A stretch of DNA of 36,360 nucleotides, taken from assembly GCA_043806035.1 (NCBI GenBank), contig JAZDHK010000042.1:1-36360 (forward strand), read 5' to 3'. Source of the DNA: an archaeon. Its GTDB lineage: Archaea; Nanobdellota; Nanobdellia; Woesearchaeales; UBA9642. A program made the position numbers and the translations under genes. Numbering within the stretch: the first letter of the stretch is position 1; each line of letters opens with the position of its first letter. Shown one piece after another: positions 216 through 16,528 of the stretch. The notes under the pieces are model-generated. The model saw nothing but the letters and a program-made list of their open reading frames with translations. It was not told the origin of the DNA and did not search any database.

Positions 216-240
216 GCCATATACATTGACTGGGTGCGTG

Positions 241-795: not shown

Positions 796-1412
796 CCAAA
801 AGGATAAACCTGAATGAGTTCATCAAGTACTTCAATCGAAAGTCTCTACAAGAGGCAACACAAGATGCTGCTAGAATCACAATCACAAGGAAAGATTTCA
901 CGGCTATCCTGCTCATGCTTTCCCAGCAGGACTACAAACAAGAATACACAATCCAGTTCCTGCTCAAATTCGAACACAGGAAGACGAAAGAAGAAGGGAT
1001 CTTTCAGCGAGAATTCAGCATAGAACATCATCCCACACCCAGCAAACACTCCAAGCCTCACGTGCAAGTGCACATCCACGGCCCAGATCCCACTGACAAA
1101 GTCGGTGAACTCTGGATTACCCTGCCGCTCAAGAAAGATGCTGCATACAAGACGTGCATCGAAGGTTTCTTCAGCATCCTAGAAAATATCATACGGCAAT
1201 GCGAGCCAGGATTAGAGGAGGTCATGCTTGACATCACGGAAGTGCAAAAACTCACTCAGCAAAAAACATTCCTACACGAGAGCATCCAGGAAAGCCTCAG
1301 AACGAAAGACATACTCTATCAACAGCCTGACGGCACAAAAATACTGCTCACACCAAAAAACATAACGGGCCTGCTGAACAAGGACCAGGCACTCCTGCCA
1401 TTCTTTCAATGA
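792..1412 (+). CDS. Hypothetical protein with His-rich motif (possible toxin partner)
   Basis: 206-aa ORF translationally coupled to the RHH gene; EHHPTPSKHSKPHVQVHIH cluster. Confidence 0.55.
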   Translation: MTKRINLNEFIKYFNRKSLQEATQDAARITITRKDFTAILLMLSQQDYKQEYTIQFLLKFEHRKTKEEGIFQREFSIEHHPTPSKHSKPHVQVHIHGPDPTDKVGELWITLPLKKDAAYKTCIEGFFSILENIIRQCEPGLEEVMLDITEVQKLTQQKTFLHESIQESLRTKDILYQQPDGTKILLTPKNITGLLNKDQALLPFFQ

Positions 1413-1513
1413 CGCGGCTCTGCTTCGGGCAAGCATCGCGAAGCTGCTTCTCGACCTGCCTTGTTGTCTTCATGTTGTATAGCGACGATGCGAACGAATA
1501 TTTAAATGATGCT
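1411..1513 (-). repeat. Extended cassette end copy 2: degenerate tRNA-Ser(TGA) 3' remnant, conserved spacer and motif
   Basis: GACGCGGCTC (1411-1420) matches 8/10 of tRNA end GCCGCAGCTC (3261-3270); TCGCGA and CTCGACC blocks at the same offsets as in 12509-12610; motif at 1484-1513. Confidence 0.65.
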
Positions 1514-1521
1514 CAATTGTG

Positions 1522-2397
1522 CTAAAATATCGTTGCGCGTGTAACATAGGAACACTCATACTTTTCGTACTCCTGCATTTCGCGGATCATCGTCCATAGA
1601 CTTGCATAAAAGACGATCGGAATGTTCTTGTTGTCCAGTTTTTGCCATCTGCTCTGCAGATTTGCTTCCCTTCTGACCACCTGGCACAATGACGCTGCTG
1701 GCCGTATGAAGCCACGAATGAGTGGGCTCGTGATTCGTTGATCAGGAGGATCGTATCTGATTTCAGGGAAAGAGTGGCGTATCTTTGTCGGGTGAAGTTG
1801 TGTTAGGACGCTAAGGAGCGTATCGCCTGCAGGAAATTTTATATAAGGTTTTTTTATTTCAGGTTTAATATCGAAATATATATTACCCGTGCGATAGCGG
1901 CCATAGTCCTCGGCGAATGGACTAGCAAAGAAGTTTCTTCTCGCTGCATAGGACATATCTATCGCAGAAAATGCGCGCTCTGCTCCTCGAGAAACGACAC
2001 GTTCAAGTGCGTCAATAGGAAAACGGTTCTGTTTATAGAACGCTCGAGCAATGGAGGTCAACTTCTCTTTATCTATCCACGGTTGACTGCCTATAGCGCG
2101 CTGTCGTCTTGTTTCTTCGTCTGCATGGTCGACTTCGTGGAACCGTGCATTCATATTTCGACGAATCATGAAATCTGTAGGATACTTGCCACCGCTCAGG
2201 TAGGTGAGAAACGCTAATACTTCTCTTTCATGCAACTTATGATAATGATACCCATCTTCATCATATTCGTTCTCGAGTAGACTTCGTAGGTAGTTGGGGT
2301 GCTGTGACAGCCTATCAAATAGATCGGTATGTATCTTCTTTATTTTCTGTTCGTGTCTTTGGATATTTTCTTGATCGACTTTATTTGTGTTTTCCAT
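1522..2397 (-). CDS. Hypothetical protein (291 aa), divergent from TrmB regulator
   Basis: Long ORF; start reassigned to MENTNK at 2397 (GAGGTGA SD upstream) because the longer ORF overlaps the TrmB gene. Confidence 0.75.
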   Translation of the reverse strand: MENTNKVDQENIQRHEQKIKKIHTDLFDRLSQHPNYLRSLLENEYDEDGYHYHKLHEREVLAFLTYLSGGKYPTDFMIRRNMNARFHEVDHADEETRRQRAIGSQPWIDKEKLTSIARAFYKQNRFPIDALERVVSRGAERAFSAIDMSYAARRNFFASPFAEDYGRYRTGNIYFDIKPEIKKPYIKFPAGDTLLSVLTQLHPTKIRHSFPEIRYDPPDQRITSPLIRGFIRPAASLCQVVRREANLQSRWQKLDNKNIPIVFYASLWTMIREMQEYEKYECSYVTRATIF

Positions 2398-2497
2398 TTT
2401 AATCACCTCATAGTAGTATGTGTTGGTTTTTATTAATAAATGTTTGTAATAATGTATATTACGACAAAATTTAAATAGCAATTCATCTTTCGCAGGA

Positions 2498-3232
2498 ATG
2501 ATGGATACGAAACCGCTTGAAAACATAGGCCTCACTGCCTTTGAGTCAAAAGTGTACGTGGCATTGGTTGAGCTAGGTTCAGCGTCAGCAAGCCAAATCA
2601 TCCAGAAGACTGGCCTGCATCGTGCCGTCGTGTACGATCTGCTCGAACGCCTCATCGAGAAAGGGCTTGTGGGCCACGTCATCAAGACGAGGAAAAAGTT
2701 CTTTGAGGCGAGCGATCCTCGTCGACTGATGGAGATAGTCAAGGAAAAGGAGCAAGGTATCTCGGTACTCATGCCGCAGCTCCTGGAGCTATCGAAGTTC
2801 GGTTCTGCGCTCGAAGTTCGTATCTACAAAGGGAAGGAGGGTATGAAAACTGTTTTCGAAGATATACTGCGTGGCAAACCTCGGGAGTGGCTGGTCATGG
2901 GGTCAGGAGGTGAGACGTTTCAGTTGATACCTGCCTATCTCGCGCAGTTTCAGGAGCGACGTGCGAAACTAGGTATTCATCTGCGTGGATTGATGCTTGA
3001 CAGCGATAAGGCGAAAAAGCGAGGTAAAGAATTAGTGCAGCAACAGCACACGCAAATACGTTTTCTTCCCAAGCAGTTCAAAACACCGTCGGTAATCAAT
3101 ATCTACAATGATCGGGTAACATTGTTTTCTGTGACGGGCGAGAACATACCTTTTATTATACTGATTGAGAACAGAGAGTTGATGAAATCATTCAAAGAAT
3201 ATTTCGAATGGTTGTGGAGCATTTCTTCCTAG
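2498..3232 (+). CDS. TrmB-family transcriptional regulator
   Basis: LENIGLTAFESKVYVALVELG...VYDLLERLIEKGLV wHTH; YKGKEGMK linker; PLD-like effector domain (INIYNDRV). Confidence 0.9.
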   Translation: MMDTKPLENIGLTAFESKVYVALVELGSASASQIIQKTGLHRAVVYDLLERLIEKGLVGHVIKTRKKFFEASDPRRLMEIVKEKEQGISVLMPQLLELSKFGSALEVRIYKGKEGMKTVFEDILRGKPREWLVMGSGGETFQLIPAYLAQFQERRAKLGIHLRGLMLDSDKAKKRGKELVQQQHTQIRFLPKQFKTPSVINIYNDRVTLFSVTGENIPFIILIENRELMKSFKEYFEWLWSISS

Positions 3233-3236
3233 AGGT

Positions 3237-3259
3237 ACGGCGTCGCACTGATAGTCTAA
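3237..3259. repeat. Conserved tRNA-Ser 3' flank (att-like), copy A
   Basis: ACGGCGTCGCActGAtAGTcTAA versus ACGGCGTCGCAtaGAgAGTaTAA at 15791; forms an inverted repeat with the tRNA 3' end. Confidence 0.8.
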
Positions 3260-3400
3260 CGCCGCAGCTCGGATTTGAACCGAGAAGCCCTTTCGGGCAC
3301 CGGTTAGCTTTATGTGGGCTTGAGCGTGAGCGAAACCCACGCGTATCAAATGAGCCCATTTGTTCAAGACCGGCGCAATACCAGATTATGCGACTGCGGC
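3260..3400 (-). tRNA. tRNA-Ser(TGA) with 57-nt intron at 37/38 (3306-3362)
   Basis: GCCGCAG/CTGCGGC acceptor stem, CCGGT-CT-TGA-A|A-ACCGG anticodon arm, long variable arm GCCCGAAAGGGC, GTTCAAATC T-loop, G discriminator. Confidence 0.92.
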
Positions 3401-3507
3401 ACAGTATGCAGAGGTAAATGCCCGTTTATAAATCATGCGACATTTTTCGGGTCGAGGAACGAAATTTTTATATAATACTGCCCTCAGGAAGACGGCTAGG
3501 TGATGCC

Positions 3508-3666
3508 ATGGCTGAAGAAGAAATTGATGATGAACTTGAAGAAGATGCGGCAGACAGGCTAGAAGACGACGAAATCTCTGACAGCGAAGAAGCGTTCGAG
3601 AAGGGGTATGACGACGCCTTCAACGAGGAAGAGGAACCGAAAGAGGAAGAGACGGAAGAAACCTAA
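3508..3666 (+). CDS. Small, extremely acidic protein (52 aa)
   Basis: MAEEEIDDELEED...; AGGTGA SD and TTTTTATA box upstream. Confidence 0.7.
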   Translation: MAEEEIDDELEEDAADRLEDDEISDSEEAFEKGYDDAFNEEEEPKEEETEET

Positions 3667-5549
3667 ACTTTTTTGCTGATTTCTTCACGTAATTTTTTTA
3701 TAATGTCCTCGACGGGCATGCTGCCCAGGATTTTCTCTTCGCGCGTCCGCACGTTGACGTTCTTTGCTTCGACTTCCTTGTCGCCTATCACGAGCATGTA
3801 GTTGATTTTTTGCAGTTGCGCCTCACGGATTTTCTTGTTTACGGACTCTGCCCGTGAGTCGAGCTCTGCGCGGATGTCTGCGTCGAGCAAGTGCTTGAGT
3901 ACCTCTTGGGCGAACGGCTCGTGCCTGTCCGCAATCGTTAATATTTTCACTTGTACGGGGCTTAGCCAGAGCGGGAACTTGCCTGCGTAGTGCTCGATGA
4001 GCAGTCCATAGAAACGTTCTACGGCACCGTAGATAACTCTGTGAATCATGATAGGTCGGTGTTTTCTTCCATCGGGGCCGTCATAGGTGAGGTCGAAGCG
4101 TTCAGGAAACGCCATGTCGAACTGGATGGTGCCGCACTGCCACGTCCTACCGATAGCATCCTTGATGTGGATGTCAATCTTGGGGCCGTAGAACGCGCCG
4201 TCTCCCTCATTGATCTTATACGGTTTGCCGTAGCTTTCGAGAGCCTCGCGCAGGCTGTTGGTAGCAATTTCCCATTGCTCGTCGGTACCGATGCTCTTTT
4301 CTGGACGGGTACTGAGCTCGAGATGATACGTCAGTCCGAAGGTAGCATATATTTCCTCTGCAAGTTTGAGCACGCCAAGAATCTCGTCTTTCGCCTGATC
4401 TGCGCTCATGAAGATGTGCGCGTCGTCTTGGTTGAAGCATCGTACTCTGAACAGTCCATTCAGGACTCCGCTCAGTTCGTGCCTGTGCACCAACCCTATC
4501 TCTGCCTGACGAATGGGTAATTCTTTGTAGCTATGCACCTTTTCTTTGTAGAGCAGCATGCCTCCTGGACAGTTCATGGGCTTAATGGCAAAATCCTGCC
4601 CGTCGATGTTTGTCGTGTACATGTTCTCTCTGTAGTTCATCCAGTGCCCTGATGTCTCCCAGAGTTTGCGATTGAGGATGAGCGGTGTCTTGACCTGGAC
4701 GTAGCCTGCGCGCTTGTGGACTTCATGCCAGTATTTCATGAGTTCGTCCCAGATGCTCATGCCTTTAGGATGGAAAAATGGCATTCCGGGACCTTCCTCG
4801 TGAATGCTGAACAGATCGAGTTCACGTCCGAGCTTCTTGTGATCTCTTTTCGCTGCCTCCTCGATCTTGAACAGGTACTCCTTGAGCTGCTTCCTGTCAG
4901 GGAAGGAAATGCCATAAATTCTTTGTAGCTGCTTGTTCTCTGCCTTTCCTCTCCAGTACGCGCCCGCTATCTTCGTTATCTTGAACGCCTTGATCATGCC
5001 CGTCCGGGGCAGGTGAGGGCCTCTGCACAAATCAGAGAATTCTCCCTGCGTGTAGACGCTGATGTTGCCTTCCAGTTCTTTGATCATCTCTTCCTTGTAC
5101 TCGTTTCCCTTGAATCGTTCCAACGCTTCTGCCTTGGAAAGCTCTTCTCTTGTTATGGGCAGGTTTTCCTTGACAATTTTTTCCATCTCCTCCTCTATCT
5201 TCTTGGCGTCTTCGGGAGTGAGTGGCTGCATATCGATGTCGTAGTAGAAGCCTTCCTCGACGACAGGACCAATGGTGAGCTTGGCTTGAGGATAGAGGTG
5301 CATGATGGCCTGTGCCAGCACGTGCGCCGATGAGTGCCTGAACACGTCCATGCCCTCCTTATCATCGGTGGTGAGCAGTTTCAGCTCTCCGTCTTCCTCG
5401 AGCTTCCGCTTCAGATCAAGAGGGGTGTTGTTGAAAAGAACAGCGACGGCAAGATGCATCCTGCCCTTGTCCAGCTCCTCGAGAACGTGCTCTGCAGTGA
5501 CTCCTTTCCTGAACTCGTGCTTCTGCCCTTTATAGGTGAGATTAATCAT
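3663..5549 (-). CDS. thrS: Threonine--tRNA ligase (bacterial-type architecture)
   Basis: TGS-like N-terminus, RHSSAH and DLCRGPH editing motifs, GAYWRG, KPMNCP, GAFYGPKID, WQCGTIQ. Confidence 0.97.
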   Translation of the reverse strand: MINLTYKGQKHEFRKGVTAEHVLEELDKGRMHLAVAVLFNNTPLDLKRKLEEDGELKLLTTDDKEGMDVFRHSSAHVLAQAIMHLYPQAKLTIGPVVEEGFYYDIDMQPLTPEDAKKIEEEMEKIVKENLPITREELSKAEALERFKGNEYKEEMIKELEGNISVYTQGEFSDLCRGPHLPRTGMIKAFKITKIAGAYWRGKAENKQLQRIYGISFPDRKQLKEYLFKIEEAAKRDHKKLGRELDLFSIHEEGPGMPFFHPKGMSIWDELMKYWHEVHKRAGYVQVKTPLILNRKLWETSGHWMNYRENMYTTNIDGQDFAIKPMNCPGGMLLYKEKVHSYKELPIRQAEIGLVHRHELSGVLNGLFRVRCFNQDDAHIFMSADQAKDEILGVLKLAEEIYATFGLTYHLELSTRPEKSIGTDEQWEIATNSLREALESYGKPYKINEGDGAFYGPKIDIHIKDAIGRTWQCGTIQFDMAFPERFDLTYDGPDGRKHRPIMIHRVIYGAVERFYGLLIEHYAGKFPLWLSPVQVKILTIADRHEPFAQEVLKHLLDADIRAELDSRAESVNKKIREAQLQKINYMLVIGDKEVEAKNVNVRTREEKILGSMPVEDIIKKLREEISKKV

Positions 5550-5585
5550 GGCATGGACGGTTGAGGAGAATGTTTAAAAAGTTTA

Positions 5586-5774
5586 TCACACTTTGTACTT
5601 GAACGTGTTCCGCTTGCCTGTATTCTTGTACTGGACGATGTTCGTCTTCCTGAGCTTTTTCAGGGACATCGTCACTGAACCTATGGACACTTTGAGTTTC
5701 TCAGAAATCTCTCGAGAGGTAAACCATTTGCCTTTATGCTTGCACAAAAAATCATACACTTCCTGTTGTCCCAT
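5586..5774 (-). CDS. Small winged-helix DNA-binding protein
   Basis: MGQQEVYDFL...WFTSREISEKLKVSIGSVTMSLKKLRK. Confidence 0.8.
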   Translation of the reverse strand: MGQQEVYDFLCKHKGKWFTSREISEKLKVSIGSVTMSLKKLRKTNIVQYKNTGKRNTFKYKV

Positions 5775-5964
5775 GCTCTTACCCCGAACGTACACCTCAA
5801 GGACGAGAGGAGCTATATAAGCTTTTGGTTTTCACCCTCAGATAGAAACGGGTCATTGACCAGTTTGTCCACCGAGCGAAGTCTTCAGAGAGAACAGCTG
5901 TTGCGATTGTCCTCGAGGCGTGCAGCTGTTTTCCTTGCTGTACGGAGCGCAATGGCACACGTCA

Positions 5965-6105
5965 CTACCAAAGAAATATTGCCACGATGACCAGAACGAA
6001 ACCTGCGGCGATGGCGATGTGCGCGATTAGCTTGTCCGTCGAAAGACTTGTGACGTACTTCTGGACGGTATCAAGAACTTCCTGAACGTTTGCCTGAATG
6101 TCCAT
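5965..6105 (-). CDS. Small membrane protein (46 aa), not in the ORF track
   Basis: Manual translation MDIQANVQEVLDTVQKYVTSLSTDKLIAHIAIAAGFVLVIVAIFLW*; minus-strand TTTAAATA at 6127-6134. Confidence 0.7.
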   Translation of the reverse strand: MDIQANVQEVLDTVQKYVTSLSTDKLIAHIAIAAGFVLVIVAIFLW

Positions 6106-6161
6106 GCAACAATCGAAGAATGAAGGTATTTAAAGATTGTGAAAAAAAAGAAAAAAAAGTT

Positions 6162-6965
6162 TTACTTGTAGTCTGCCTTGGGTGCAGGTTCGGTGTATTT
6201 CTTCCAACCCTGCAGCTGTTCCTGTGCATTCTGTGCCTGCTTGTAGCCGTTTCTGGCACGAGCTGTGCTGAATGCGTAGTTTGCCATTCTGTCATCTTCG
6301 GGAACCCAGCCAGTCTTGTCTTTTGCTCCTTTTAGGAACATTGCAGCAACGTCGGTCTCGCCGTACTTAAGCACTGCTTCTTGGACTGCCAAATCTCCTG
6401 GTTTCTCGGCAATGCCTTGCTTGGCGACTTCTGCAGCTCTCTTGATTGCTGCTCTGTATTGCCTTTTCTTTCCAGACGAGATTCCGGTGAAGAGTCGTTG
6501 GTATTCCTCCTCTTCTATGCCTATCTCTTTAGCGAGTCCTTGCAGGACGCTTAATGCTTGCTGGTCACTGGTGAACTTTCCGCCTTCTGCCCATTCTTTG
6601 TACGTCTTGGCGAATTTCTTCGCTTTGTCGTCGCCTTCTGCAGCTAGGGCCAAGAGTGCGTCTTCGAGTGCGGCTCTGACTCGTGCATCATCTTGCTTGT
6701 ATTTCTTGGGATCTTTGACCATGAATCCGTTCGCTTCAGCAGTCACGAGATGTTTGCCGTAGGCATCGTTGACTCTGGTGTCGATGTTCTTGCCTTTCGT
6801 CACTTTGCCGTCTTTTCCTTTTGTTTCGGGCTGCTTGTAGATTTGGTCGTCAGTATAGTCCAAGTCGGATAGTTGCAGGAGATTCTTTGTGTCTTCTTTG
6901 CTCACATTTCCTGCAGATTTCCAGACGATGTCCGTCAATTCCTGCGGTTTCTTTTTTTCTGCCAT
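6162..6965 (-). CDS. Hypothetical Lys/Ala-rich protein
   Basis: 267-aa ORF with GAGGGG SD and a BRE/TATA-like AAAACCGAAAAGTATATAAATA upstream. Confidence 0.8.
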   Translation of the reverse strand: MAEKKKPQELTDIVWKSAGNVSKEDTKNLLQLSDLDYTDDQIYKQPETKGKDGKVTKGKNIDTRVNDAYGKHLVTAEANGFMVKDPKKYKQDDARVRAALEDALLALAAEGDDKAKKFAKTYKEWAEGGKFTSDQQALSVLQGLAKEIGIEEEEYQRLFTGISSGKKRQYRAAIKRAAEVAKQGIAEKPGDLAVQEAVLKYGETDVAAMFLKGAKDKTGWVPEDDRMANYAFSTARARNGYKQAQNAQEQLQGWKKYTEPAPKADYK

Positions 6966-7054
6966 TGTGTATCCCCTCTTTCCTCTTTTTTGAATATCGT
7001 ATGTATATTACTAGTATATAGTAGAGCTTATTTATATACTTTTCGGTTTTTTCA

Positions 7055-7630
7055 TCACTTTTTAGTGGTAAAATTCTCTTTTTTGGGGGTGTGGCGTGGT
7101 GTGGGGAAGTACCGCAGCATGAAGGGATAGGGGATGACGGTGCCTTTGTCGTCGAGAGTCATGTCCTTTGCCGTATTCCAGCCCAAATAGTCGAGAGTGA
7201 GCACATGCGTCCGCATGGTAACTATCGCTTCCAGCTTGCCCAATTCCTTATCGTGCTCGTCGAAGAACAGGCAGTTTCGCTCACGTGCGCTCTCTTCCCT
7301 GCCCCGGATGGAGAATCCGAGCCAGAATGGTTTTTTGACGATGTATAGCTTGTCTTGGCACTCGATGACCTTCCCTGCTCTTGCCGTCCGAGAAACGTAA
7401 TCTTCAGCAGGCTCGTCTTTATTCCTGTAGGCATTTCTTGCGTTGAACATTTCTGCAAGGATGTTCCGTTCTGGCGGCAGGTTGCTGGTCGTGAGTTGGT
7501 GGATATCTAAGATGTAGTCGTCTATTCCCTCTGCTACAGCTCGCTCATATGCTTTTTTTGCTTTTCGGTAGGCGGGCATGACAGCAACATCTCCTGACGC
7601 TATGCGTTTGAGTCTCCCCAGCAGAGTCAT
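7055..7630 (-). CDS. Hypothetical protein
   Basis: 191-aa ORF with an AT-rich TATA-like box about 25 nt upstream. Confidence 0.65.
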   Translation of the reverse strand: MTLLGRLKRIASGDVAVMPAYRKAKKAYERAVAEGIDDYILDIHQLTTSNLPPERNILAEMFNARNAYRNKDEPAEDYVSRTARAGKVIECQDKLYIVKKPFWLGFSIRGREESARERNCLFFDEHDKELGKLEAIVTMRTHVLTLDYLGWNTAKDMTLDDKGTVIPYPFMLRYFPTPRHTPKKENFTTKK

Positions 7631-7696
7631 GTACTGTTAATTCTCCGTTGCTTTTTAAATATTTCTTTTTTGTAACTATCAATTAGTGAGTATATT

Positions 7697-8377
7697 TTAG
7701 AATTTCTTGGAGGGTTTCTTCGCCGTTTCTTCTCCCCAATAGCGTTTTGGTGCATGATATTTGATGAGGAGTGAACGGATGGCAGTCCTCGTCTGATCCA
7801 TGACCTTCCGCGTTATTGCAGGATCATTTTCTTTTCCATACAGTCCGGAGAAGTACAACGGTTTTCCGACGATGACCTTCACTTTCTTTTTCTTGGGTAT
7901 GGTGTAGATGATCTTCATGCCCTGATGGACCATGCCATAACTGCCGATGATGGCAACAGGGATGATGGGGACGTGGGCGGTGAGCGCCACTCGTGCCGCT
8001 CCCGTGTAGAACCATCGCAGGCGTGGAGCTCCTCTGCACGTTCCTTCAGGGAATATGCCGAACGCTCCCCCTTTCTTGATGATGGCGACCGCTTTGGCGA
8101 TTGCGGGTCCTGACTTGCCCTTGCCTCTGTCGATGGCGATGTGACCGAACAAGGACAGCGGGATCCTGTAGATGGTGTCGAACAATTCCTGCTTGGCGAG
8201 GAAGATTATTTCTCGTTTGAAATGGCAGTACAGCAGGAATCCATCAGGTCTTCCTGAATGGTTGAAGGCGAGCACGCAGCCTCCTTTCGGGATGCGGTCC
8301 TCGTGCAGCATTTCATAGCGGTAATACCACGTGAATGGTGCCTTGAGGACTGTTGCAATGGCGTATCGTAAACCCAT
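7697..8377 (-). CDS. plsC: Lysophospholipid acyltransferase (PlsC family)
   Basis: NHSGRPD (HX4D), FLAKQELF, IDRG, FPEGT, GAARVA, PIIPVAI motifs. Confidence 0.88.
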   Translation of the reverse strand: MGLRYAIATVLKAPFTWYYRYEMLHEDRIPKGGCVLAFNHSGRPDGFLLYCHFKREIIFLAKQELFDTIYRIPLSLFGHIAIDRGKGKSGPAIAKAVAIIKKGGAFGIFPEGTCRGAPRLRWFYTGAARVALTAHVPIIPVAIIGSYGMVHQGMKIIYTIPKKKKVKVIVGKPLYFSGLYGKENDPAITRKVMDQTRTAIRSLLIKYHAPKRYWGEETAKKPSKKF

Positions 8378-8446
8378 GAGCGGAGCAAGATTGGCCGTTT
8401 TATTTAAAGCTACTGACTCTGTTGAATATCTCGTCCGAGCCTCGCT

Positions 8447-9790
8447 TCAACGATGCCATCTGCGCAAGAACCTTCTCAGGAAGCTTTTTTTTTGCTTCGG
8501 CCGGATTTTCGTCCTCAGGTGATGCATTTCCTTGCCCAGCTGTACTTTGATATCCTCTGATTTTCCCGTCGCAAGCACCTGTGATGGGTAAATGCTCCTA
8601 TGCCCTGAGACGAGGAAACTCACCACGCAGGCAAGCGCGGCATACGGAGCTACCGCTGGGCCGAATAATTCAACAGACATAATACTTGCTGCGATGGGCG
8701 TGTTTGCTGCGCCGGCGAGCACACTCACTATGCCTATGGCGGCGAATGTCGCAACGTCCACCCTCAACAGCTGGGCGAAGAACACGCCGGCCGTCGCCCC
8801 GATGAAGAATATCGGGGTGACTACTCCTCCGCTTCCTCCGAACGCGAGGGTGATGCTCGTGAATGCCATCTTCAGCAGGAATGCGTACCAGACAATCGTG
8901 TTTCCTTGCAGCGTCCCCTCGATGGTGCTTAATCCTAAGCCAAGAAACTGCGTCGAGAAGATCAGCGTGAGCCCGACGATGATCCCTCCGCCGATGAGCC
9001 CTTTCCATGGACTCCACACTCGTATGTTGTTTGCGGTCTTCTCAATGTACTTGAAGAGTTCGATGAAGAGGAATGCGCATAACCCGAAGAACACGCCCGC
9101 GAGGATGACCTTAACCAGGAACAATTGGCTGAAGACAGGAACAAAACTCAGTGCGTGTGAAAAATAGGTTATGCCGAGCGATGCGGCGACGTGATACCCT
9201 ATTATTCCCGCAATGAATGAGGGAAGCAGAACGTCATACATGATGCTGCCGACGTAGAGCACCTCAACACCAAATATTGCTCCCGCGATGGGCGTCCCGA
9301 AGACAGCAGCAAAGCCTGCGCTGATGCCGCAGATGACGAGCTTTTTCCTGTCATGCCTGTTGAACCTGAGCAGATCAGAGAACGTAGAAGAGAGTCCAGC
9401 CCCTATCTGTGCGCACGGCCCTTCTTTTCCTGCAGAGCCTCCGCTGGCGAGAGTGATGATGGTGGCGATGAGCTTGATGGGGACGACGGCAGCCTTTATC
9501 TTGCCTGCACGCTTGTGCACGGCTTCTATGACTTTCTCCGTGCCGTGCCCTTTGGCGTCAGGAGCAAGGTACTTGATGAGCACTGCGCTCAGGAAGAATG
9601 CTACGGGTATGAGAAAATAATAGTACGGGATGGTATTGACAGAATTGGTGCTGATGTTTAGTGCCTTAAGAAAGAGCGTGGTTGCCGTTCCTACGATGAG
9701 ACCTATGCCTGCGGCGAGGACGCACCACTTGACGATGTTCAGAAAGATGACGGTTACTTCGCTAATCCTTTTATCCGTATGAAAATTCAT
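8447..9790 (-). CDS. ClC chloride channel/antiporter family protein
   Basis: GHGTE, GGSAGKEGP, AGFAAVFGTP, GGVVTPIFFIG; many TM segments. Confidence 0.93.
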   Translation of the reverse strand: MNFHTDKRISEVTVIFLNIVKWCVLAAGIGLIVGTATTLFLKALNISTNSVNTIPYYYFLIPVAFFLSAVLIKYLAPDAKGHGTEKVIEAVHKRAGKIKAAVVPIKLIATIITLASGGSAGKEGPCAQIGAGLSSTFSDLLRFNRHDRKKLVICGISAGFAAVFGTPIAGAIFGVEVLYVGSIMYDVLLPSFIAGIIGYHVAASLGITYFSHALSFVPVFSQLFLVKVILAGVFFGLCAFLFIELFKYIEKTANNIRVWSPWKGLIGGGIIVGLTLIFSTQFLGLGLSTIEGTLQGNTIVWYAFLLKMAFTSITLAFGGSGGVVTPIFFIGATAGVFFAQLLRVDVATFAAIGIVSVLAGAANTPIAASIMSVELFGPAVAPYAALACVVSFLVSGHRSIYPSQVLATGKSEDIKVQLGKEMHHLRTKIRPKQKKSFLRRFLRRWHR

Positions 9791-9837
9791 TTTCTATGGG
9801 GCGAACCAGACCAGGTAATATAAATGTATTTGGTTTA

Positions 9838-9975
9838 CTGGCTTCATCCTGAGAGTCTCGTGCATCCCCTTGCGAACAATCAACAAACAATTCTATTGCG
9901 TGAAGACTCGTATGCGTGCATCTGTTTACAATGCTATGCGGAGCGGGATGCGAAAGAGATTCAGAATGAAGCCAG
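9838..9975. repeat. 138-bp element with ~31-bp imperfect terminal inverted repeats
   Basis: CTGGCTTCATcCTGA...GCATCCC / GGGATGC...TCAGaATGAAGCCAG (24/31 paired by eye). Confidence 0.65.
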
Positions 9976-9994
9976 CTCTGCGGTATGTGCCGCA

Positions 9995-11248
9995 TCAAGG
10001 GTAGATGCCTCTGAGCTCTGTGGTCTTTGCAACTCTGCTTATGGCGATCATGTACGCTGCCGTCCTCATATCCGTGTGCTCTTTCTTGGCAAGCTCCCTG
10101 ACTGCATGATAGGCAGGCACGAGCTTGTGCTTCAACTTCTGATTTACTTCTTCATGGCTCCAGGACTCGCGCTGCTGGTTCTGTACCCATTCAAAATAAC
10201 TGACAATGACGCCGCCTGCGTTGGCCAGGATGTCTGGAATGACGAGCATGCCTTTCTTGTAAAAGATTTCGTTCGCGGCAGGCGTTGTGGGACCGTTTGC
10301 TCCTTCGGCGATGATTCTTGCGCTAATGCGTTCTGCGTTGCTTTGCGTGAGCTGGTTCTCTAATGCTGCAGGGACGAGAATATCGCACGGCATCTCCAGG
10401 ATTCTTTCTTTTGGCAGGATTTCTTCTGCGGGAAATCCCTTGAGCGTTTTTTTCTCGGTAACGTGCTGCAGCAGTTTTGGCATGTCCAATCCGTTTTTGT
10501 CGTAGAGTGCCGTGTTGATGTCGCTGACCCCGATGATGGTTATGCCTTGCTCTGCCAAAAGCCTGGCTGCGTGGCTACCCACGTTGCCGAAACCTTGGAC
10601 GATGCACGTCAGTTTTTGAGGTTGCAGGCCAAGGTCCTTGATGGCTTCCATGGTGCAGAGCATGACTCCCCTTCCTGTCGCCTCTTCCCTGCCGAGGCTG
10701 CCACCTAAGTCTATCGGTTTTCCGGTGACGACTGCTTTCGAGACGCCTCCGGGTTTCTGCATCATGTACGTGTCTGCCATCCATGCCATGGTCTGAGCAT
10801 TGGTGTTGACGTCAGGAGCGGGAATGTCGATGTCGGGCCCTATGTTGTCGATGAGCGCGTACGTGAATCGTCTCGTGAGTCGTTCCAGCTCTGCCTTGCT
10901 GAGCTTTGTGGGATTGCACGTTACTCCTCCCTTCGCTCCTCCGAAGGGAATATCCACAACTGCCGTCTTCCAGGTCATCCAGCTTGCCAGGGCTTTGACT
11001 TCGTCGAGGTCTACTTGCGGGGCAAACCGGATTCCTCCTTTGTACGGGCCTCGGACGTTGTTGTGCTGCACTCTGTATCCTTCGAATTTCTGCACCGTTC
11101 CATCATCCATTTTGACGGGGAAGGGGACGGTGATTTCCTTGTCTGGTTCTTTCAGGTAGGCACGCATCCAGGGCTGCAGTTTCAGCCTGTCGGCGGCCCT
11201 GTCGAAGTAGTGCTGTGCTATCTTAAAGGGGTTGAGTGTTTCTGCCAT
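9995..11248 (-). CDS. gdhA: Glu/Leu/Phe/Val dehydrogenase (glutamate dehydrogenase)
   Basis: GPYKGGIR, GGAKGG, DIPAPD, QGFGNVG, EGANGP, NAGGVIVSYFEW; GGTGA SD before ATG 11248. Confidence 0.95.
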   Translation of the reverse strand: MAETLNPFKIAQHYFDRAADRLKLQPWMRAYLKEPDKEITVPFPVKMDDGTVQKFEGYRVQHNNVRGPYKGGIRFAPQVDLDEVKALASWMTWKTAVVDIPFGGAKGGVTCNPTKLSKAELERLTRRFTYALIDNIGPDIDIPAPDVNTNAQTMAWMADTYMMQKPGGVSKAVVTGKPIDLGGSLGREEATGRGVMLCTMEAIKDLGLQPQKLTCIVQGFGNVGSHAARLLAEQGITIIGVSDINTALYDKNGLDMPKLLQHVTEKKTLKGFPAEEILPKERILEMPCDILVPAALENQLTQSNAERISARIIAEGANGPTTPAANEIFYKKGMLVIPDILANAGGVIVSYFEWVQNQQRESWSHEEVNQKLKHKLVPAYHAVRELAKKEHTDMRTAAYMIAISRVAKTTELRGIYP

Positions 11249-11380
11249 TGCTTTCACCTGTTGCTCTGGTGTGGTTTTCTGTATTTAAACCTTAGTATAA
11301 GATATTGTAAGAATGACACTATTTGTCATCGTATCGCACATATATTCTTCGCGTGCACAATACTATCTATTGGCAAAACC

Positions 11381-11431
11381 TATTGATTTCACTGTTTTGT
11401 TGACGATGCTAACAAATATTTAAATGATGCT
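11381..11431 (-). repeat. Cassette-end motif copy 3
   Basis: TATTGAtttcactgttttgttGACGATG-ctaacaaa-TATTTAAATGATGCT, similar over ~50 bp to 12560-12610. Confidence 0.85.
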
Positions 11432-11451
11432 CTTCTCCAATATAACGCTGT

Positions 11452-12327
11452 TCATTTCGTCTGTTGCAAGGATCGCTTCACGATGTAGGTGACGAAGATA
11501 TGCTCTTGATGCCGTGTCTGGCTGCGCTCAAGGGCGGTGTAGTAGGCGTTCCTGTTCGTGTATTCTATGTTCAGCATCGGATAGCCCTGGCTGTGGAGAG
11601 TGTGATTCATGAGCAGCCGTGATATTCTTCCGTTGCCGTCGCTGAACGGGTGGATGCTGACGAATTTGAGGTGGACGAGGGCTGCCAGGATGACGGGATT
11701 GAGTTTTTTAAAGTTCTTGTTGTACCAGATGAAGAATTCATCGAGGAGCGTGTTCAGCTCTGCAGGGAGAGGCAGTTCAGTCTTGCTTCGCGCTATCGCT
11801 ACTGCATGCTTTCTAATGATTCCTGCTATTTCGGGATCCGCGTCCTTGAAGAGTTCCCTATGCCAGTGTAGCACGACGTTCAGGTTCAGCCTCTTGTTGT
11901 AGGCGAGCATGTCATAGAACATTTTTTTGTGCGCCTCCGCCTCCTTGACATCCTTTATTTTCTTGTTCGCAGGAGTGATCTGCTCTTGCAAGAGGTCTGC
12001 GGTCTCCTTGAGCGTCAGCGTCCCTCCCTCTATCCTGTTCGTGTTGTACGTGAATCGTATCATGAACGACTCAAGGTATTTCTCCTTGTACGAGTCAGGG
12101 TAGCTTGCGAAGTCTTTCTCGAATTTCACTTTTCTTTTAAGCAGTTCCTCTCCATAGGTCTCTTCAAGAAGCTCGTAGACGAAATGCTCTTTCAGTTCCT
12201 CAACGTTTTTCGGAATGCTGTCTCCCAGGTATTTTCTTCTGTTCTGGAATCCCTCCTTTGTGCGCAGTGTGTGTTCTAGGTAATAGTATTTCTTTTTTCC
12301 CTGCTGGAGCGTCCTGAGTCTTGCCAT
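11452..12327 (-). CDS. Fic-domain protein with N-terminal inhibitory helix (class II-like)
   Basis: HPFSDGNGRISR active-site motif; TNRIEG (S/T-x3-E-G/N) upstream; start moved to MARLRT by TATA spacing. Confidence 0.92.
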   Translation of the reverse strand: MARLRTLQQGKKKYYYLEHTLRTKEGFQNRRKYLGDSIPKNVEELKEHFVYELLEETYGEELLKRKVKFEKDFASYPDSYKEKYLESFMIRFTYNTNRIEGGTLTLKETADLLQEQITPANKKIKDVKEAEAHKKMFYDMLAYNKRLNLNVVLHWHRELFKDADPEIAGIIRKHAVAIARSKTELPLPAELNTLLDEFFIWYNKNFKKLNPVILAALVHLKFVSIHPFSDGNGRISRLLMNHTLHSQGYPMLNIEYTNRNAYYTALERSQTRHQEHIFVTYIVKRSLQQTK

Positions 12328-12507
12328 GCTTTGAGTATACGTCACAAATATATAAATATTGTCATTTTAGCTGATATGTGACGTATATTGGCCCTGCGGG
12401 GTTTACCCTCTACATTGCGAAAATAATTTGTAGAGGATAAGACGTGATGTTCAGCGACGGTGCTAATTTGCATCTGTTGTATTGGTACACTTGTATAGAG
12501 AAAAAGG

Positions 12508-12610
12508 CGCCGTGGCCCTAGCCAAGATAATGTTCGCGATGCCGACACTCGACCACGTCTATTGAAATCATTGTTTTATCGACGGTGCAATAGATTATTT
12601 AAATGATGCT
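12508..12610 (-). repeat. Extended cassette end copy 4: exact 11-bp tRNA-Ser(GGA) 3' end, spacer and motif
   Basis: CGCCGTGGCCC (12508-12518) is identical to 15814-15824; motif at 12581-12610. Confidence 0.8.
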
Positions 12611-12645
12611 ATTCCTGTGGTTTAAGATGCGTAATTGCGTATTGA

Positions 12646-13368
12646 TCAAGACGCGATAGACCATAATATGTTGAAAATCTCGCGTTGTTGCTTGACCACA
12701 TCCTCATTTTTGACGATGATGCCGACGAGGTTTTCTCCTGATGTCATGAACGCGACCTTATCGCCGTACATGAAAACGTTGGTTGTCATGTTATTTAATT
12801 TCTTCAAGAATTTCAGCGAAGACAGTGCGTATATTTTTTTGTCATTGTAAGCCGGATCTCCTCTGTCTTCTTCTGCTAGGACTGCCCTTAATGGAATTCC
12901 GTGTTCTGCTCGTTTCTGGATAAAGTTCTCTGGATAGTGTTGCAGTGCATGGAGCGCTTTTTTTCTCGATCCGTAGAACCAGAGTTCTTTTTTCTCGTCT
13001 ATGATGTCATTGAGTACAGTTATGACTCCTTTTTTTCCTTCAAAGAATGTTACGCCTGTCGTCTCCCTGACGGTTCCTTTCAAAGTCTGTAACTCTGGAA
13101 TAATTTTCTTTATGCGTTCTCGCCTGTCCTCAAGGAGTCTGATAATCTTCTGCGGATCCGCGGCGATGTAGAAATTTACTTTTCCTTTCATGACTGTTGA
13201 TACTATTCCTTTATTCATTAGTAGTGCAAGGTTATCGTATGTTGTCGTTCGCTTGATGCCTGTTATTTTCGCTGTTCTATTAGCTGTTGAGCTGCCCGTT
13301 TTGAGCAAGGTTGTGTAGATACTAATTTCTGTGTCAGAAAGCCCGAAATCCTTTAGCTCGTCATACAT
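12646..13368 (-). CDS. TrmB-family transcriptional regulator
   Basis: LKDFGLSDTEISIYTTLLKTG...TTYDNLALLMNKGIV; FEGKKGV; MYGDKVAF. Confidence 0.9.
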   Translation of the reverse strand: MYDELKDFGLSDTEISIYTTLLKTGSSTANRTAKITGIKRTTTYDNLALLMNKGIVSTVMKGKVNFYIAADPQKIIRLLEDRRERIKKIIPELQTLKGTVRETTGVTFFEGKKGVITVLNDIIDEKKELWFYGSRKKALHALQHYPENFIQKRAEHGIPLRAVLAEEDRGDPAYNDKKIYALSSLKFLKKLNNMTTNVFMYGDKVAFMTSGENLVGIIVKNEDVVKQQREIFNILWSIAS

Positions 13369-13464
13369 GTTCTGGTTTCATCTTCTTTCGTATTTAAATT
13401 TTATCATTAAGTCGTCGCTTGCCGACAACTAAAATTGATATAGGTAAACTGACACTACTAATGC

Positions 13465-14262
13465 ATGGTAAAAATAAATGAGGTTGCGGAATTTGACGGG
13501 ATCAGGGCAGAAATGTATGAACAGGCAATAAGCAAGTTTCCTGATGCGAGAACCATGGATATCGAGGCAATGAGCAGATTGCTTGATCCACGATCTGGAG
13601 AGAAAATACTGGGATTTGGAGAAGGAAATGGCTATTTCTGCACGGCCATAGCGCAAGCAGTGGGTGAACAGGGGCATTATCTTGTCACGGACCCATCTGA
13701 GGATCAATTGAATAATCTTAAAAAGAATTGTCAAGCGCATCAGGTAGAGGTTCAAGCTAATGGTGTTGAAAATCTGATCGTGCAAAATAACTATTTTGAC
13801 AAAGCATGGAGCTTTGGAGCATATCACCATTGCCCTGAGCAAATAGAAGGCATGAAAAGAGTGTACGATTCATTAAAGTCAGGTGGGACGTTGGTTCTCT
13901 GCGACGTATTCCAAGGAAGCGAGCTTGCACGGCACTTTGACGAGACGGTTGCTAGATACTGCATTACAGGTCATGAAGTAAAATTTCTATCGAATGAGTT
14001 CGCACGAACATTGTGTCATCTAGCAGGATTTGCCGATGATAAAGTCGAGCTGATTTCATTGCCGCAGAAATGGAGATTTGACTCAAAAAAAGACTTAGGA
14101 GAGTTCATCTACAAGTTGCATGCAATGACCTTATATGATGGACATGAAGAGGAGAAAATAAATCGAACAATCGAGTCATGTGAACGTTTGCTCGGCGTCA
14201 GTTACAAAAATGGAAAATACGAATTGAACTGGCCAATGCAAGCAATCATAGCGACAAAATGA
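13465..14262 (+). CDS. Class I SAM-dependent methyltransferase
   Basis: GEKILGFGEGNG, DPSEDQL, FDKAWSFGAYHH, LKSGGTLVLCD. Confidence 0.85.
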   Translation: MVKINEVAEFDGIRAEMYEQAISKFPDARTMDIEAMSRLLDPRSGEKILGFGEGNGYFCTAIAQAVGEQGHYLVTDPSEDQLNNLKKNCQAHQVEVQANGVENLIVQNNYFDKAWSFGAYHHCPEQIEGMKRVYDSLKSGGTLVLCDVFQGSELARHFDETVARYCITGHEVKFLSNEFARTLCHLAGFADDKVELISLPQKWRFDSKKDLGEFIYKLHAMTLYDGHEEEKINRTIESCERLLGVSYKNGKYELNWPMQAIIATK

Positions 14263-14408
14263 TTGCTTCGTCAGTATATAAATAGAACTAGGTCCTAGTT
14301 AGGGCCTGTATCGCTCGAATTCGAGAGTTTCAAGCTTTTTAAGGTCCTGTAGACTCAGGAGAGATTATTTCTTGCAAAATGATTTTAGCAGGACCTGGAG
14401 GAAAATTG

Positions 14409-15092
14409 TTACGGGTTGCTTAGCGAAAGAACAGCTCGTACATGTTTCTCAAAAGTGGTTTTATTGACGCTGCCGTACACGCCTTGCAGGTCATTCCTGA
14501 ATGAGGGGCTAGTCACTTTCTTCTTGATGAGCTCGAAGCGTTTCTTGAAGTCAGTCCTCGCGTGCACCTCTTGTTTGATCCACGCTGTGTTCTTGGCGCT
14601 CGGCAGGAGCATGAACACGTCCCTGATGTCGGTGCTTCGTGCGCTCACGAATTTCATGACGATGAGCGCGTCGAGATTGATGATGTGTAGGGTCACGTCA
14701 TCGTAGATGGTCTTTCCTTTGAGCTTTCGCTTGGAGGCGTGGTCGAAGATCCACTCTGCTGTGAAGGACGAGCCCGATTGTCGGTCGTGCACGCTTCCTG
14801 TCAGAAGATCCATGCTGACCTTGAAGTTATTCTGGAGTGTTTTCTCGAAGCGAGAGAACGTTCCACCGTATGAGGCACGTGCTTGCGTGTCTACTTGGTC
14901 GTATCCTTCGTCTTTCATCATCTTCGCGATGTGAGCCGTCGCTTTTTGGTCAAGGACGACGATGTCGCAGTCGACGCTGAATCTGGGCAGCGTGTACGTG
15001 TTGACAGCGTAGCCGCCGATGAGAACAAAAGACGCGTTCTCCAGCTTTTTTAGTGTCTCGAAGATGGCTTTTTCCCTAAGCTGCAAGTCCAT
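14409..15092 (-). CDS. Nucleotidyltransferase, AbiEii/type IV toxin-like
   Basis: FVLIGGYAV...RFSVDCDIV; LIVMK...RSTDIRD. Confidence 0.8.
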   Translation of the reverse strand: MDLQLREKAIFETLKKLENASFVLIGGYAVNTYTLPRFSVDCDIVVLDQKATAHIAKMMKDEGYDQVDTQARASYGGTFSRFEKTLQNNFKVSMDLLTGSVHDRQSGSSFTAEWIFDHASKRKLKGKTIYDDVTLHIINLDALIVMKFVSARSTDIRDVFMLLPSAKNTAWIKQEVHARTDFKKRFELIKKKVTSPSFRNDLQGVYGSVNKTTFEKHVRAVLSLSNP

Positions 15093-15675
15093 ATTTTTTC
15101 CTCATATATTCGTATGCGTAGCTGTACAGCTCGTTGTCCCTCGCAATCTGCACGGTGTCTGCCAACGGTTCGACGTGCAATCCTTCCTTTTGTGTCGGTT
15201 TCATCGCAGTCACCGGAATCAAAATGACGTATTCTCCTATAGTGGAGCCCGTCTTCATATAGTTTGGGATGTTTTTTCCGTTAAAAAATGACTTCCAATA
15301 ATTGACATCTTTCTTCAACACCTTGATGAAGTACGGCGACCGTTCCCGGCTCCTTTGCACATACGAGTAGTCTGACCATATTTCGACAGCGGATAATCCT
15401 GTAAAACAATACGGTCTGGTGGTCTCTTTTATTATGTCAGGGACTTTGAAATCCAACAAACTGTGCATGATTTTATCAGGTTTGTTGCAGGCGTACGTCG
15501 TCCTCGACTTTTTTGCAATCCACTGTGACCTGACCAAATGCGCAAATATCTTCTTCTTCATGCTCGAACCCACAATCCAGTCTAATACTGATTGGCTGAA
15601 CAATTCTTGCGTACCATATTTCGAGAACAACATAGCGTACGCCCTCAAGCAGTAGGCGGGTATTTCGGCAGTCAT
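15076..15675 (-). CDS. AbiEi-like putative antitoxin/regulator
   Basis: wHTH-like N-terminus, YCFTGLSAVEIW; overlaps the nucleotidyltransferase gene; GTTAC-N7-GTAAC palindrome just upstream. Confidence 0.6.
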   Translation of the reverse strand: MTAEIPAYCLRAYAMLFSKYGTQELFSQSVLDWIVGSSMKKKIFAHLVRSQWIAKKSRTTYACNKPDKIMHSLLDFKVPDIIKETTRPYCFTGLSAVEIWSDYSYVQRSRERSPYFIKVLKKDVNYWKSFFNGKNIPNYMKTGSTIGEYVILIPVTAMKPTQKEGLHVEPLADTVQIARDNELYSYAYEYMRKKYGLAA

Positions 15676-15790
15676 AGTTACCTATTAAGTAACTTATATT
15701 TAAATAGTTATCGAAAAATAGGGCAAACAAGGACTGCCAACTATCAATTCGTTAGATATTGGTAGATTCTAATATGTGGTCTAAGAAGAG

Positions 15791-15813
15791 ACGGCGTCGC
15801 ATAGAGAGTATAA
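15791..15813. repeat. Conserved tRNA-Ser 3' flank (att-like), copy B
   Basis: 19/23 identical to 3237-3259; ACGGCGT (15791) and ACGCCGT (15813) form an inverted repeat. Confidence 0.8.
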
Positions 15814-15938
15814 CGCCGTGGCCCGGATTTGAACCGGGAAACCCTTGCGGGAACAAGCTCTCCTGATATTCTGGACATTCCAGGCTTACGCTCAAAGTAT
15901 TTTTTGATTTGCGCAGTACCAGGTTGTGCCACCACGGC
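15814..15938 (-). tRNA. tRNA-Ser(GGA) with two introns (23 nt at ~29/30, 15886-15908; 18 nt in anticodon loop, ~15860-15877)
   Basis: GCCGTGG/CCACGGC acceptor stem, GTTCAAATC T-loop, long variable arm; CAAGC-CT-GGA-RA-GCTTG arm forms only after removing both inserts. Confidence 0.85.
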
Positions 15939-15991
15939 ATGCAGGGTAGGTTTTTAGCAATATTTATAAACGTTTCCGCTCTCCTGGGAAC

Positions 15992-16183: not shown

Positions 16184-16206
16184 ACACTGTACGGGGGTGC
16201 GGTGCC

Positions 16207-16488: not shown

Positions 16489-16528
16489 TAATAACCTTTT
16501 TATAGTGCTGTTTTATTCCCTGCTGTAC

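Follow-up and report, generated by a model that had tools for sequence, protein, structure and literature searches.

We analyzed a stretch of 36,360 nucleotides (nt) from an archaeon of the order Woesearchaeales (the window; contig JAZDHK010000042.1 of assembly GCA_043806035.1), in which two serine tRNA genes, tRNA-Ser(TGA) and tRNA-Ser(GGA), are each followed by islets of DNA that have homologous ends and different cargo and contain no recognizable recombinase gene. This structure is real and lies far beyond chance. We postulate that the islets are remnants of integrative elements specific for tRNA-Ser and that their conserved ends are the arms of an attachment site (attP) that lay within the 5′-terminal part of an integrase gene, a reading that we hold with moderate confidence. 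The islets were recognized in a preliminary description of the sequence, and our results agree with what it said of their ends and their cargo and, by searches with PF00589 and with Pfam, of the missing recombinase. In the assembly, which has 42 contigs and 1.5 Mb and is 93.7% complete, the window corresponds to contig C42. The genome is the sole member of its genus among the genomes compared, and the order comprises several hundred genera with genomes of ~1 Mb.

In the window, ARAGORN with default settings and Rfam detect a tRNA-Arg only. When introns were allowed, ARAGORN called tRNA-Ser(TGA) at c[3259,3401], with a 57-nt intron, and miscalled the second gene, at c[15813,15939], as tRNA-Trp. 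The second gene has a long variable arm and a 3′ exon 83 to 84% identical to those of other tRNA-Ser genes. Deletion of about 21 to 24 nt at the junction of the D arm and the anticodon stem led ARAGORN to call a tRNA-Ser in 93 of 980 variants, and 27 of the 40 deletion variants listed were Ser(GGA) with a second, 18-nt intron. In all, four tRNA-Ser genes are present in the genome, with anticodons TGA, GGA, CGA (on C13), and GCT (on C3). A 51-nt part of the tRNA-Ser(TGA) intron (3314 to 3364) is 86% identical to C15:11717-11767 and has further matches in the order, at loci of the genomes G037 and G029, one of them beside a tRNA-Arg gene.

The TGA and GGA genes, two of the four, adjoin a common flank of 23 to 24 nt, here called the left arm. 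The count of 19 identical positions out of 23 given in the preliminary description (3237 versus 15791) was reproduced by hand at its coordinates; one base further left it is 18 of 23, and flank comparison gives 19 of 24. Placed in register with the flank of any other tRNA called by ARAGORN in the genome, either flank scores 12 to 14 of 24 at best, with a median of 9. The flank is missing behind tRNA-Ser(CGA), which shares 95% identity with tRNA-Ser(TGA) in the 3′ exon, and behind all five tRNA-Ser genes recovered from relatives. The sequence TGCGACGCCGT, with which the left arm ends, occurs exactly three times in the 1.5 Mb of the genome, namely in the two flanks and at one site on C41, and a left-arm pattern had no match in species-representative genomes. 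Beyond the left arm, one islet continues with the end of a TrmB gene and the other with a 137-nt spacer, two mutually unrelated sequences, and the reading frames leading out of the two tRNA-Ser genes stay open for just 13 and 26 codons. Two further ideas about the arms were rejected: an inverted repeat between the two arms (best 9 of 11, other pairs 8 of 11) was not significant (shuffle P of 0.09 to 0.52), and reading both sequences revealed no complementarity of the kind expected if a trailer paired with a leader, as in split tRNAs.

The far end of each islet, the right arm, is a module that aligns over ~100 nt between units. It contains the motif GACGRTG-N8-TATTTAAATGATGCT, which has six exact copies in the genome, four in the window (142, 1484, 11402, and 12581) and two on C13 (1777 and 2903). 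The preliminary description read this motif on the wrong strand: its TATA box reads on the strand of the tRNA genes, where the sequence is AGCATCA-TTTAAATA-N8-CAYCGTC. By direct reading of that strand, an ATG (GTG in one copy) lies 24 to 25 nt past TTTAAATA in all four intact leaders, and neighboring genes have their ATG 20 to 22 nt past their TATA boxes. The 22 specified motif positions are invariant across the six copies, and the leaders are 67 to 79% identical between units. An nhmmer profile of the module found only seven sites with an E value of <0.01 genome-wide, five with the leader and two with the promoter only. A reading of the ATGATGC in the motif as part of a C/D-box small RNA was rejected, as the D box is absent at the proper distance.

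All of the leaders end in one alignment column at a copy of a tRNA-Ser 3′ end, which is GGGCCACGGCG in the module behind tRNA-Ser(GGA) and GAGCTGCGGCG in the C13 modules. The tRNA-Ser(GGA) 11-mer that had been reported at 12508 is exact and occurs only twice in the genome, in the tRNA gene and at 12508-12518. The tRNA-Ser(TGA) 11-mer occurs four times: in the tRNA gene, in the two homologous C13 modules (196-206 and 2994-3004), and at one site in a radical S-adenosylmethionine (SAM) open reading frame (ORF). The C13 copy at 2994-3004 matches at 16 of 16 positions when the next 5 nt, TTAGA, are counted in. The 8-of-10 match at 1411-1420 is degenerate but sits in the homologous column, and the spacing described for the remnants (15 nt, TCGCGA, 8 nt, CTCGACC, and then the motif at its offset) is as claimed. 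The tRNA-end copy at each end is that of the tRNA behind which the islet sits, a mark of site-specific integration, in keeping with the preliminary description. A 15-nt copy of the tRNA-Ser(TGA) end at C1:70277, inside a 441-amino-acid (aa) radical-SAM ORF, was treated as chance, and a genome-wide excess of tRNA 3′-end 12-mers (44 loci versus 13 to 34 in three controls) was too noisy to use.

Since the short frames that start in the leaders are not conserved beyond the core, and two of them are out of register, they are better regarded as stumps than as small genes. The right end reads as a promoter followed by the first ~17 codons of a gene that was truncated exactly at the end of the tRNA copy. 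In the C13 stumps the core is read in frame as ..RAAAL.., continuing the VQI frame that is used by an integrase on C30 (see below). A T-run after the core copy of the GGA module resembles the terminators behind three of five tRNA-Ser genes from relatives.

From the repeats and arms, which are observed directly, we infer that the islets originated by integration. Both tRNA-Ser genes would then be occupied attachment sites, at which the final 11 nt of the tRNA gene recombined site-specifically with an identical core carried by the element, and the conserved ends would correspond to the arms on either side of that core in attP. On the tRNA strand, the right arm would consist of an archaeal promoter that faces outwards (AGCATCATTTAAATA-N8-CAYCGTC), a start codon at leaderless distance, and ~17 codons running into the core, and because of this arrangement it may be the 5′ stump of a gene cut by integration. 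The 23-nt left arm would be the next piece of the same gene. Elements found at tRNA-Trp and tRNA-Gln in this genome suggest, by analogy, that the cut gene may have been the element's own tyrosine integrase in the type I, or “suicidal,” layout, with attP inside the reading frame. Its catalytic part would have been lost later, which would leave the present islets unable to move alone, and later arrivals could have displaced older units outwards, producing stacked arrays that keep defense-type cargo. The geometry of an int(N) fragment is present (TATA box, ATG at 24 to 25 nt, ~17 codons, core), and the stump peptide matches no integrase in our searches.

The analogy comes from other contigs. The genome encodes seven recombinases matching PF00589, none of them on the window or C13. 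In one of these (C30:784-1668, minus strand) an open frame leads out of the T arm and acceptor of tRNA-Trp, reading RVQIPASP, and in another (C24:2800-4017) it leads out of tRNA-Gln, reading PRFESGRG. At C41:2860-2884 there is an exact copy of 25 nt from the tRNA-Trp end, with an ATG and 21 codons ahead of it in the same frame (C41:2796-2884), and the sequence past this copy resembles a native tRNA trailer. The tRNA-Gln end also has copies, on C41 and C25, with an ATG or GTG and five further codons upstream in the integrase frame. The C30 protein was compared with 96 public homologues, of which 25 have a tetrapeptide coded by the T arm among their N-terminal 50 residues; 24 of these come from the group of 45 homologues with a length of 285 aa or more. 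The remaining 21,947 residues contain 5 such tetrapeptides. The named public homologues of the integrases belong to Woesearchaeota, Nanoarchaeota, or Nanoarchaeia, from which the source is probably a DPANN-type archaeon. Both the C30 and the C24 protein match PF00589 only (E values up to 0.01), with no match to PF16795. The layout on C30, C24, and C41 looks like that of a split (“suicidal”) integrase in a DPANN-type lineage. The peptides encoded by the left arms of the islets, LYSLCDAV and LDYQCDAV, resemble the residues past the tRNA-coded part in the C30 integrase (FFSLVDGS) and in its nearest homologue (SSLVDGG), and the resemblance of YSLCDAV to FSLVDGS is suggestive. The islet units of the preliminary description are real, but it overlooked the interrupted gene start, the arrays, and the split-type integrases at other tRNAs.

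Copies of tRNA ends were also seen at loci other than tRNA-Ser. The 12-nt end of tRNA-Gln(CTG) is found at six non-tRNA sites (C41:7408, 8096, and 9525; C25:2843; C1:76337 and 78275), of which C41:8096 and C25:2843 have a homologous upstream arm in common. A 1.9-kb unit at C1:76337-78288, where there is no tRNA gene, contains a TrmB paralogue and a 308-aa ORF and is bounded by 13-nt direct repeats of the tRNA-Gln 3′ end, with 16-of-17 inverted repeats just inside them. Copies of 13 nt of a tRNA 3′ end lie 49 nt downstream of a tRNA-His gene (C39:139-275) and 93 nt downstream of the tRNA at C1:47205 (C1:47205-47420), the latter with a TrmB paralogue ~0.85 kb beyond.

The islets form arrays, most likely of three units behind tRNA-Ser(TGA), where the contig join described below is inferred, and of two units behind tRNA-Ser(GGA); feature coordinates are collected in Table 1. 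On the tRNA strand, the first array runs from the tRNA gene through the left arm, unit 1 (a TrmB-like regulator and a 291-aa orphan ORF), and its right arm to unit 2 (two orphan ORFs), whose right arm is split by an insertion sequence. Unit 3, on C13, consists of a 238-aa orphan ORF, a TrmB gene, a promoter copy, a hairpin, a Fic gene, and a right arm with the 16-of-16 core; past it lie a radical-SAM gene, tRNA-Lys, and tRNA-Glu. Behind tRNA-Ser(GGA), unit 1 comprises a putative AbiE-type pair, a methyltransferase gene, a TrmB gene, and a right arm with the exact core and T-run. The distal unit (hairpin and Fic gene) is colinear with the C13 copy at ~70% identity, and glutamate dehydrogenase comes after it. 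Archaeal housekeeping genes surround the islets, including S17e (15992-16183), Alba, threonyl-tRNA synthetase, and glutamate dehydrogenase. The G+C content of the units is 0.437 to 0.452, versus 0.49 to 0.50 in the surrounding genes.

By its sequence families, the cargo appears defense-like (TrmB-like regulators, AbiE, Fic, methyltransferase, and orphans). The two overlapping ORFs of islet 2 likely form an AbiE-type pair. Copies of the same gene in different arrays are divergent, with 26 to 39% identity for TrmB and 35% for Fic. TrmB-like regulators adjoin three of the motif copies; the family (~240 aa) has 11 copies in the 1.5-Mb genome, of which three belong to the tRNA-Ser arrays and at least two others lie close to a tRNA gene or to a copy of a tRNA end. 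A hairpin with a 12-bp stem and a 14-nt loop is conserved upstream of both Fic genes (12403-12440 and C13:1822-1859, the C13 copy with a folding z score of -3.6) and could be an operator or a structure of the 5′ untranslated region. Pfam searches found no recombinase in the islet ORFs. For the 291-aa orphan ORF, the ESM Atlas yielded low-confidence leads only, and the orphans might conceivably encode recombinases of an unknown kind.

The left end of the window bears on the first array. The first ~137 nt of C13 are the same as the start of C20, with GATAAA (TTTATC on the other strand) next in both, and contig ends of the assembly overlap by 141 nt. Together with the repeat at the window's own start (Table 1), these repeated contig starts look like the two ends of a multicopy insertion sequence, probably of the IS200/IS605 type; the element is without terminal inverted repeats and has subterminal hairpins. 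The promoter copy at 142-171 is cut directly past CACCGTC, and the sequence that follows in intact copies (GATAAAATC-ATG, leader, and TGA core) is taken up again on C13. Joining the two contigs restores a complete module, in which the insertion sequence stands between CACCGTC and GATAAAATC-ATG, and the window most probably continues through it into C13. Two other interspersed repeats were seen in the window, one of ~134 nt (9840-9973; at least 13 other loci, 72 to 89% identical) and one of ~84 nt (5867-5950; at least 9 other loci, 70 to 84% identical).

Table 1. Features of the two tRNA-Ser arrays (window coordinates unless a contig is named)
Feature	Position	Strand	Basis
End of multicopy insertion-sequence-like element (contig-end repeat)	1-141	.	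Identical 140-141 nt at starts of C19, C1, and C34, diverging at same base
Promoter module of TGA unit 2, severed from leader by insertion sequence	142-171	-	Exact motif copy; leader and 11-nt TGA-end copy at C13:138-206
TGA unit 2: two orphan ORFs (193 and 206 aa), opposite orientation, G+C 0.446	214-1412	+	No family matches
Right arm, islet 1: TATA module 1484-1513, ATG 1473-1471, ~17 codons, degenerate tRNA-end copy r1 1411-1420	1411-1513	-	Alignment; nhmmer E value 2e-27; blastn to C13 and 12534-12610
Orphan ORF (291 aa), islet 1	1522-2397	-	No match in Pfam, PADLOC, NCBIfam, or PHROGs
TrmB-like regulator (244 aa), islet 1, opposite orientation to tRNA	2498-3232	+	PF01978, E value 1.3e-15; 30-39% identical to two other array copies
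Left arm, islet 1: 23-24 nt directly after discriminator, ending in TGCGACGCCGT	3236-3259	-	19/23-19/24 identical to 15790-15813
Putative attL core, last 11 nt of tRNA-Ser(TGA)	3260-3270	-	
tRNA-Ser(TGA), 57-nt intron, putative occupied attachment site	3260-3400	-	ARAGORN with introns; exon comparison with other tRNA-Ser genes
Distal GGA unit: hairpin, Fic gene, promoter module	11317-12507	-	Colinear with C13 1799-2954; alignment
Promoter module of distal GGA unit, decayed leader, no recognizable core	11402-11431	-	
Fic-domain gene	11452-12345	-	PF02661, E value 5e-20; PADLOC PDC-S04/SoFic
Right arm, islet 2: TATA module 12581-12610, ATG 12569, leader, exact 11-nt tRNA-Ser(GGA) end 12508-12518, then CCTTTTTCTC on tRNA strand	12508-12610	-	
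TrmB-like regulator (240 aa), islet 2	12646-13368	-	PF01978, E value 7e-15
SAM-dependent methyltransferase, islet 2	13465-14262	+	PF13649, E value 2e-13
Orphan ORF (199 aa) overlapping AbiEii-like nucleotidyltransferase (227 aa), islet 2	14409-15675	-	PF08843, E value 1.3e-3, under curated cutoff; PADLOC AbiEii, E value 1.7e-4
Left arm, islet 2	15790-15813	-	Flank comparison
tRNA-Ser(GGA), two introns, putative occupied attachment site, core 15814-15824	15814-15938	-	ARAGORN; exon comparison; intron-deletion variants

We searched for relatives of the islets in several collections, in which scans may leave out records of the source genome itself. The autonomous versions with an integrase that the preliminary description had suggested looking for were not found in the genome itself (nhmmer), in 300 other genomes of the order, in species-representative genomes, in Joint Genome Institute (JGI) metagenomes, or in IMG/VR. 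The motif has no exact copy in the 300 genomes of the order (one match with two mismatches in each of two genomes), only three chance matches, all in bacteria, in the species-representative genomes, two AT-rich chance matches in the JGI metagenomes, and none in IMG/VR. Nor was an integrase with matching arms or a tRNA-Ser core present in the 93.7%-complete genome or the collections searched. Read data comprised three runs from one study, the best of which contained 0.48 of the sampled words. Low-depth contigs (~1 to 7 in most bins) from these runs, covering positions 1-17500, had no joint at 12518/15813 or 1420/3259, and the joints near tRNAs in them all came from tRNA-Ser genes of other organisms. 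All 18 other genomes of the family encode a threonyl-tRNA synthetase, with identities of 27 to 61%, the closest relative reaching just 61%. A tRNA-Ser call (ARAGORN) adjoins it in 1 of the 18 loci, beside a 31%-identical paralogue; the neighborhood is therefore not conserved and gives no empty-site comparison.

Several of these results weigh against a lost integrase. Neither tRNA-Ser gene adjoins an integrase remnant, int(C), and searches with the short ORFs matched nothing, so that they are not demonstrably integrase; the stump peptide and the peptide of the tRNA plus left arm matched no longer protein in the protein collection. In two leaders out of four, the frame is shifted by one base relative to the core, and the core has just 11 nt, versus 25 nt in the tRNA-Trp element. 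At the nucleotide level, the proposal that the left arm is the start of the C30 integrase was rejected, as the 12 of 24 nt that match in register do not exceed the background set by other tRNA flanks. Internal starts are possible in the C30 and C24 frames (ATG at codon 28 and GTG at codon 38), so that ordinary integrases merely abutting a tRNA are a possible explanation for them. The outer, presumably older, units have no recognizable left arm, and no empty site, circle (low-depth contigs, three runs), or autonomous relative turned up. Finally, left-arm homology ends after 23 to 24 nt at the same position in both islets. Independent deletions would not stop at the same base, which implies either an ancestor that was already integrase-less or selection on the 23 nt, and an integrase-less common ancestor favors the non-autonomous family of the preliminary description.

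That family would consist of living, non-autonomous islets of 1.9 to 3.3 kb with a portable attP (arms and core), and the integrase that moves them in trans would be encoded at another place in the cell or by an unbinned episome. We regard it as rather unlikely, yet the shared end point of the left arms speaks for it, as do the seven tyrosine recombinase genes elsewhere in the genome and the two tRNA-proximal islets, which are bounded by both arms and have no recombinase family in their ORFs. Conservation is much stronger in the arms than in the cargo, the motif being invariant, which fits selection on the arms and an ancestor already without an integrase, and split-integrase elements can be excised by a related incoming element, according to the available passages of a 2021 review (PMC8371274). 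It is weakened by the failure to find, here or in any collection, an integrase with matching arms or core, by the outer units without a left arm, and by the fact that conservation is strongest in the promoter motif, where promoter function alone could explain it. In an unlikely, more elaborate variant, the islets would be living integrase-less defense cassettes whose portable attachment site is a split-integrase 5′ stump (promoter, 17 codons, 11-nt core, and next 8 codons). They would be moved in trans by DPANN-type tRNA-splitting tyrosine integrases whose “suicidal” layout evolved independently of the SSV, pTN3, and pT26-2 families of hyperthermophiles, and the invariant promoter would be a junction promoter reading across the attachment site.

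The conserved ends might instead have nothing to do with integration. A promoter or operator cassette could have spread by duplication and gene conversion, with the flank being the trailer of two tRNA-Ser genes and the cargo swapped by homologous recombination. A promoter bound by a protein would stay invariant amid divergence, as the motif does; it stands directly upstream of the C13 Fic gene and ~145 nt upstream of the start of glutamate dehydrogenase in the window, and TrmB-like regulators, of which the genome has so many, lie beside three copies. Such a cassette leaves unexplained why an 11- to 16-nt copy of the 3′ end of the particular upstream tRNA occupies the same alignment column, why the flank is absent at the closest paralogue, CGA, and why every leader has a start codon at leaderless distance, and we find it quite unlikely. 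That the 23-nt flank is a general signal for tRNA processing or termination, forming a hairpin with the acceptor strand, we consider highly improbable. The inverted repeat with the acceptor 3′ strand that was described earlier does exist at both genes (7 bp, 15-nt loop), but it is weak, and its folding energy is ordinary (z scores of -1.2 and -1.9). The flank does not follow many tRNAs, as such a signal should: the other called flanks stay at or below 12 to 14 of 24, and none of the relatives' five tRNA-Ser genes has it.

Bacterial cis-mobilizable elements (CIMEs) and the tandem accretion of genomic islands occur at tRNA genes. The islets resemble CIMEs in being att-bounded units without recombination genes, stacked behind one tRNA, but have no known helper element with the same att site, and their outer units are without one arm. 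Type I (SSV-type) archaeal elements have their attP within the integrase gene, and integration leaves int(N) at one border and int(C) at the other (She et al. 2001, as cited in PMC7253208; PMC8371274). In the passages of the review available to us, PF16795 (Phage_integr_3) is assigned to all known suicidal families, and the system is tied to hyperthermophiles; the words DPANN, Woesearchaeota, and Nanoarchaeota are absent from these passages (PMC8371274). Like type I elements, the islets target the 3′ part of a tRNA, have the tRNA end repeated in direct orientation at their far border, and carry there a promoter and first codons that read outwards, in the direction of the tRNA, through the tRNA-end copy; integrase frames run out of tRNA-Trp (C30) and tRNA-Gln (C24) in the same genome. 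Unlike them, the islets have no int(C) beside tRNA-Ser and a core of 11 nt rather than the at least 25 nt of the tRNA-Trp element, and the integrases of this genome match PF00589 instead of the PF16795 named in those passages.

Prochlorococcus tycheposons, as far as the sections of the preprint at hand describe them, are cargo elements at tRNA genes, flanked by partial tRNAs, in which newcomers push older elements deeper and leave degenerate remnants and scattered partial tRNAs (bioRxiv 10.1101/2020.12.28.424599). The location at tRNA genes, the partial-tRNA flanks, and the displaced older units are alike in the islets, whereas tycheposons, on the same account, are bacterial, usually have their own integrase and longer partial tRNAs, and have been shown by PCR to excise (bioRxiv 10.1101/2020.12.28.424599). 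Partial tRNA gene fragments are described, in the portion of another paper that we consulted, as by-products of the integration of mobile elements (PMC9897764). The short, nonfunctional tRNA 3′ fragments near genuine tRNA genes reported there are similar to those seen here, which differ in having just 11 to 16 nt and in being embedded in a conserved module of ~100 nt (PMC9897764). Split-integrase elements of hyperthermophilic archaea, CIME-like accretion, and tycheposon islands are known already. The islets are best explained as integration scars left by a lineage-specific family of elements that target tRNA-Ser and are stacked into small defense islands.

If this interpretation, which is a structural inference from one genome, is true, an archaeon with a small genome builds defense islands by stacking elements at tRNA-Ser genes, shedding the integrase and keeping the arms. 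The split-integrase layout would then reach beyond hyperthermophiles and beyond the one integrase superfamily that the available passages of the 2021 review (PMC8371274) associate with it. The arms supply primers and profiles with which circles, empty sites, and the missing helper can be sought in deeper community data. A DPANN-type family of PF00589 integrases with the attachment site in their first codons may be the more interesting lead.

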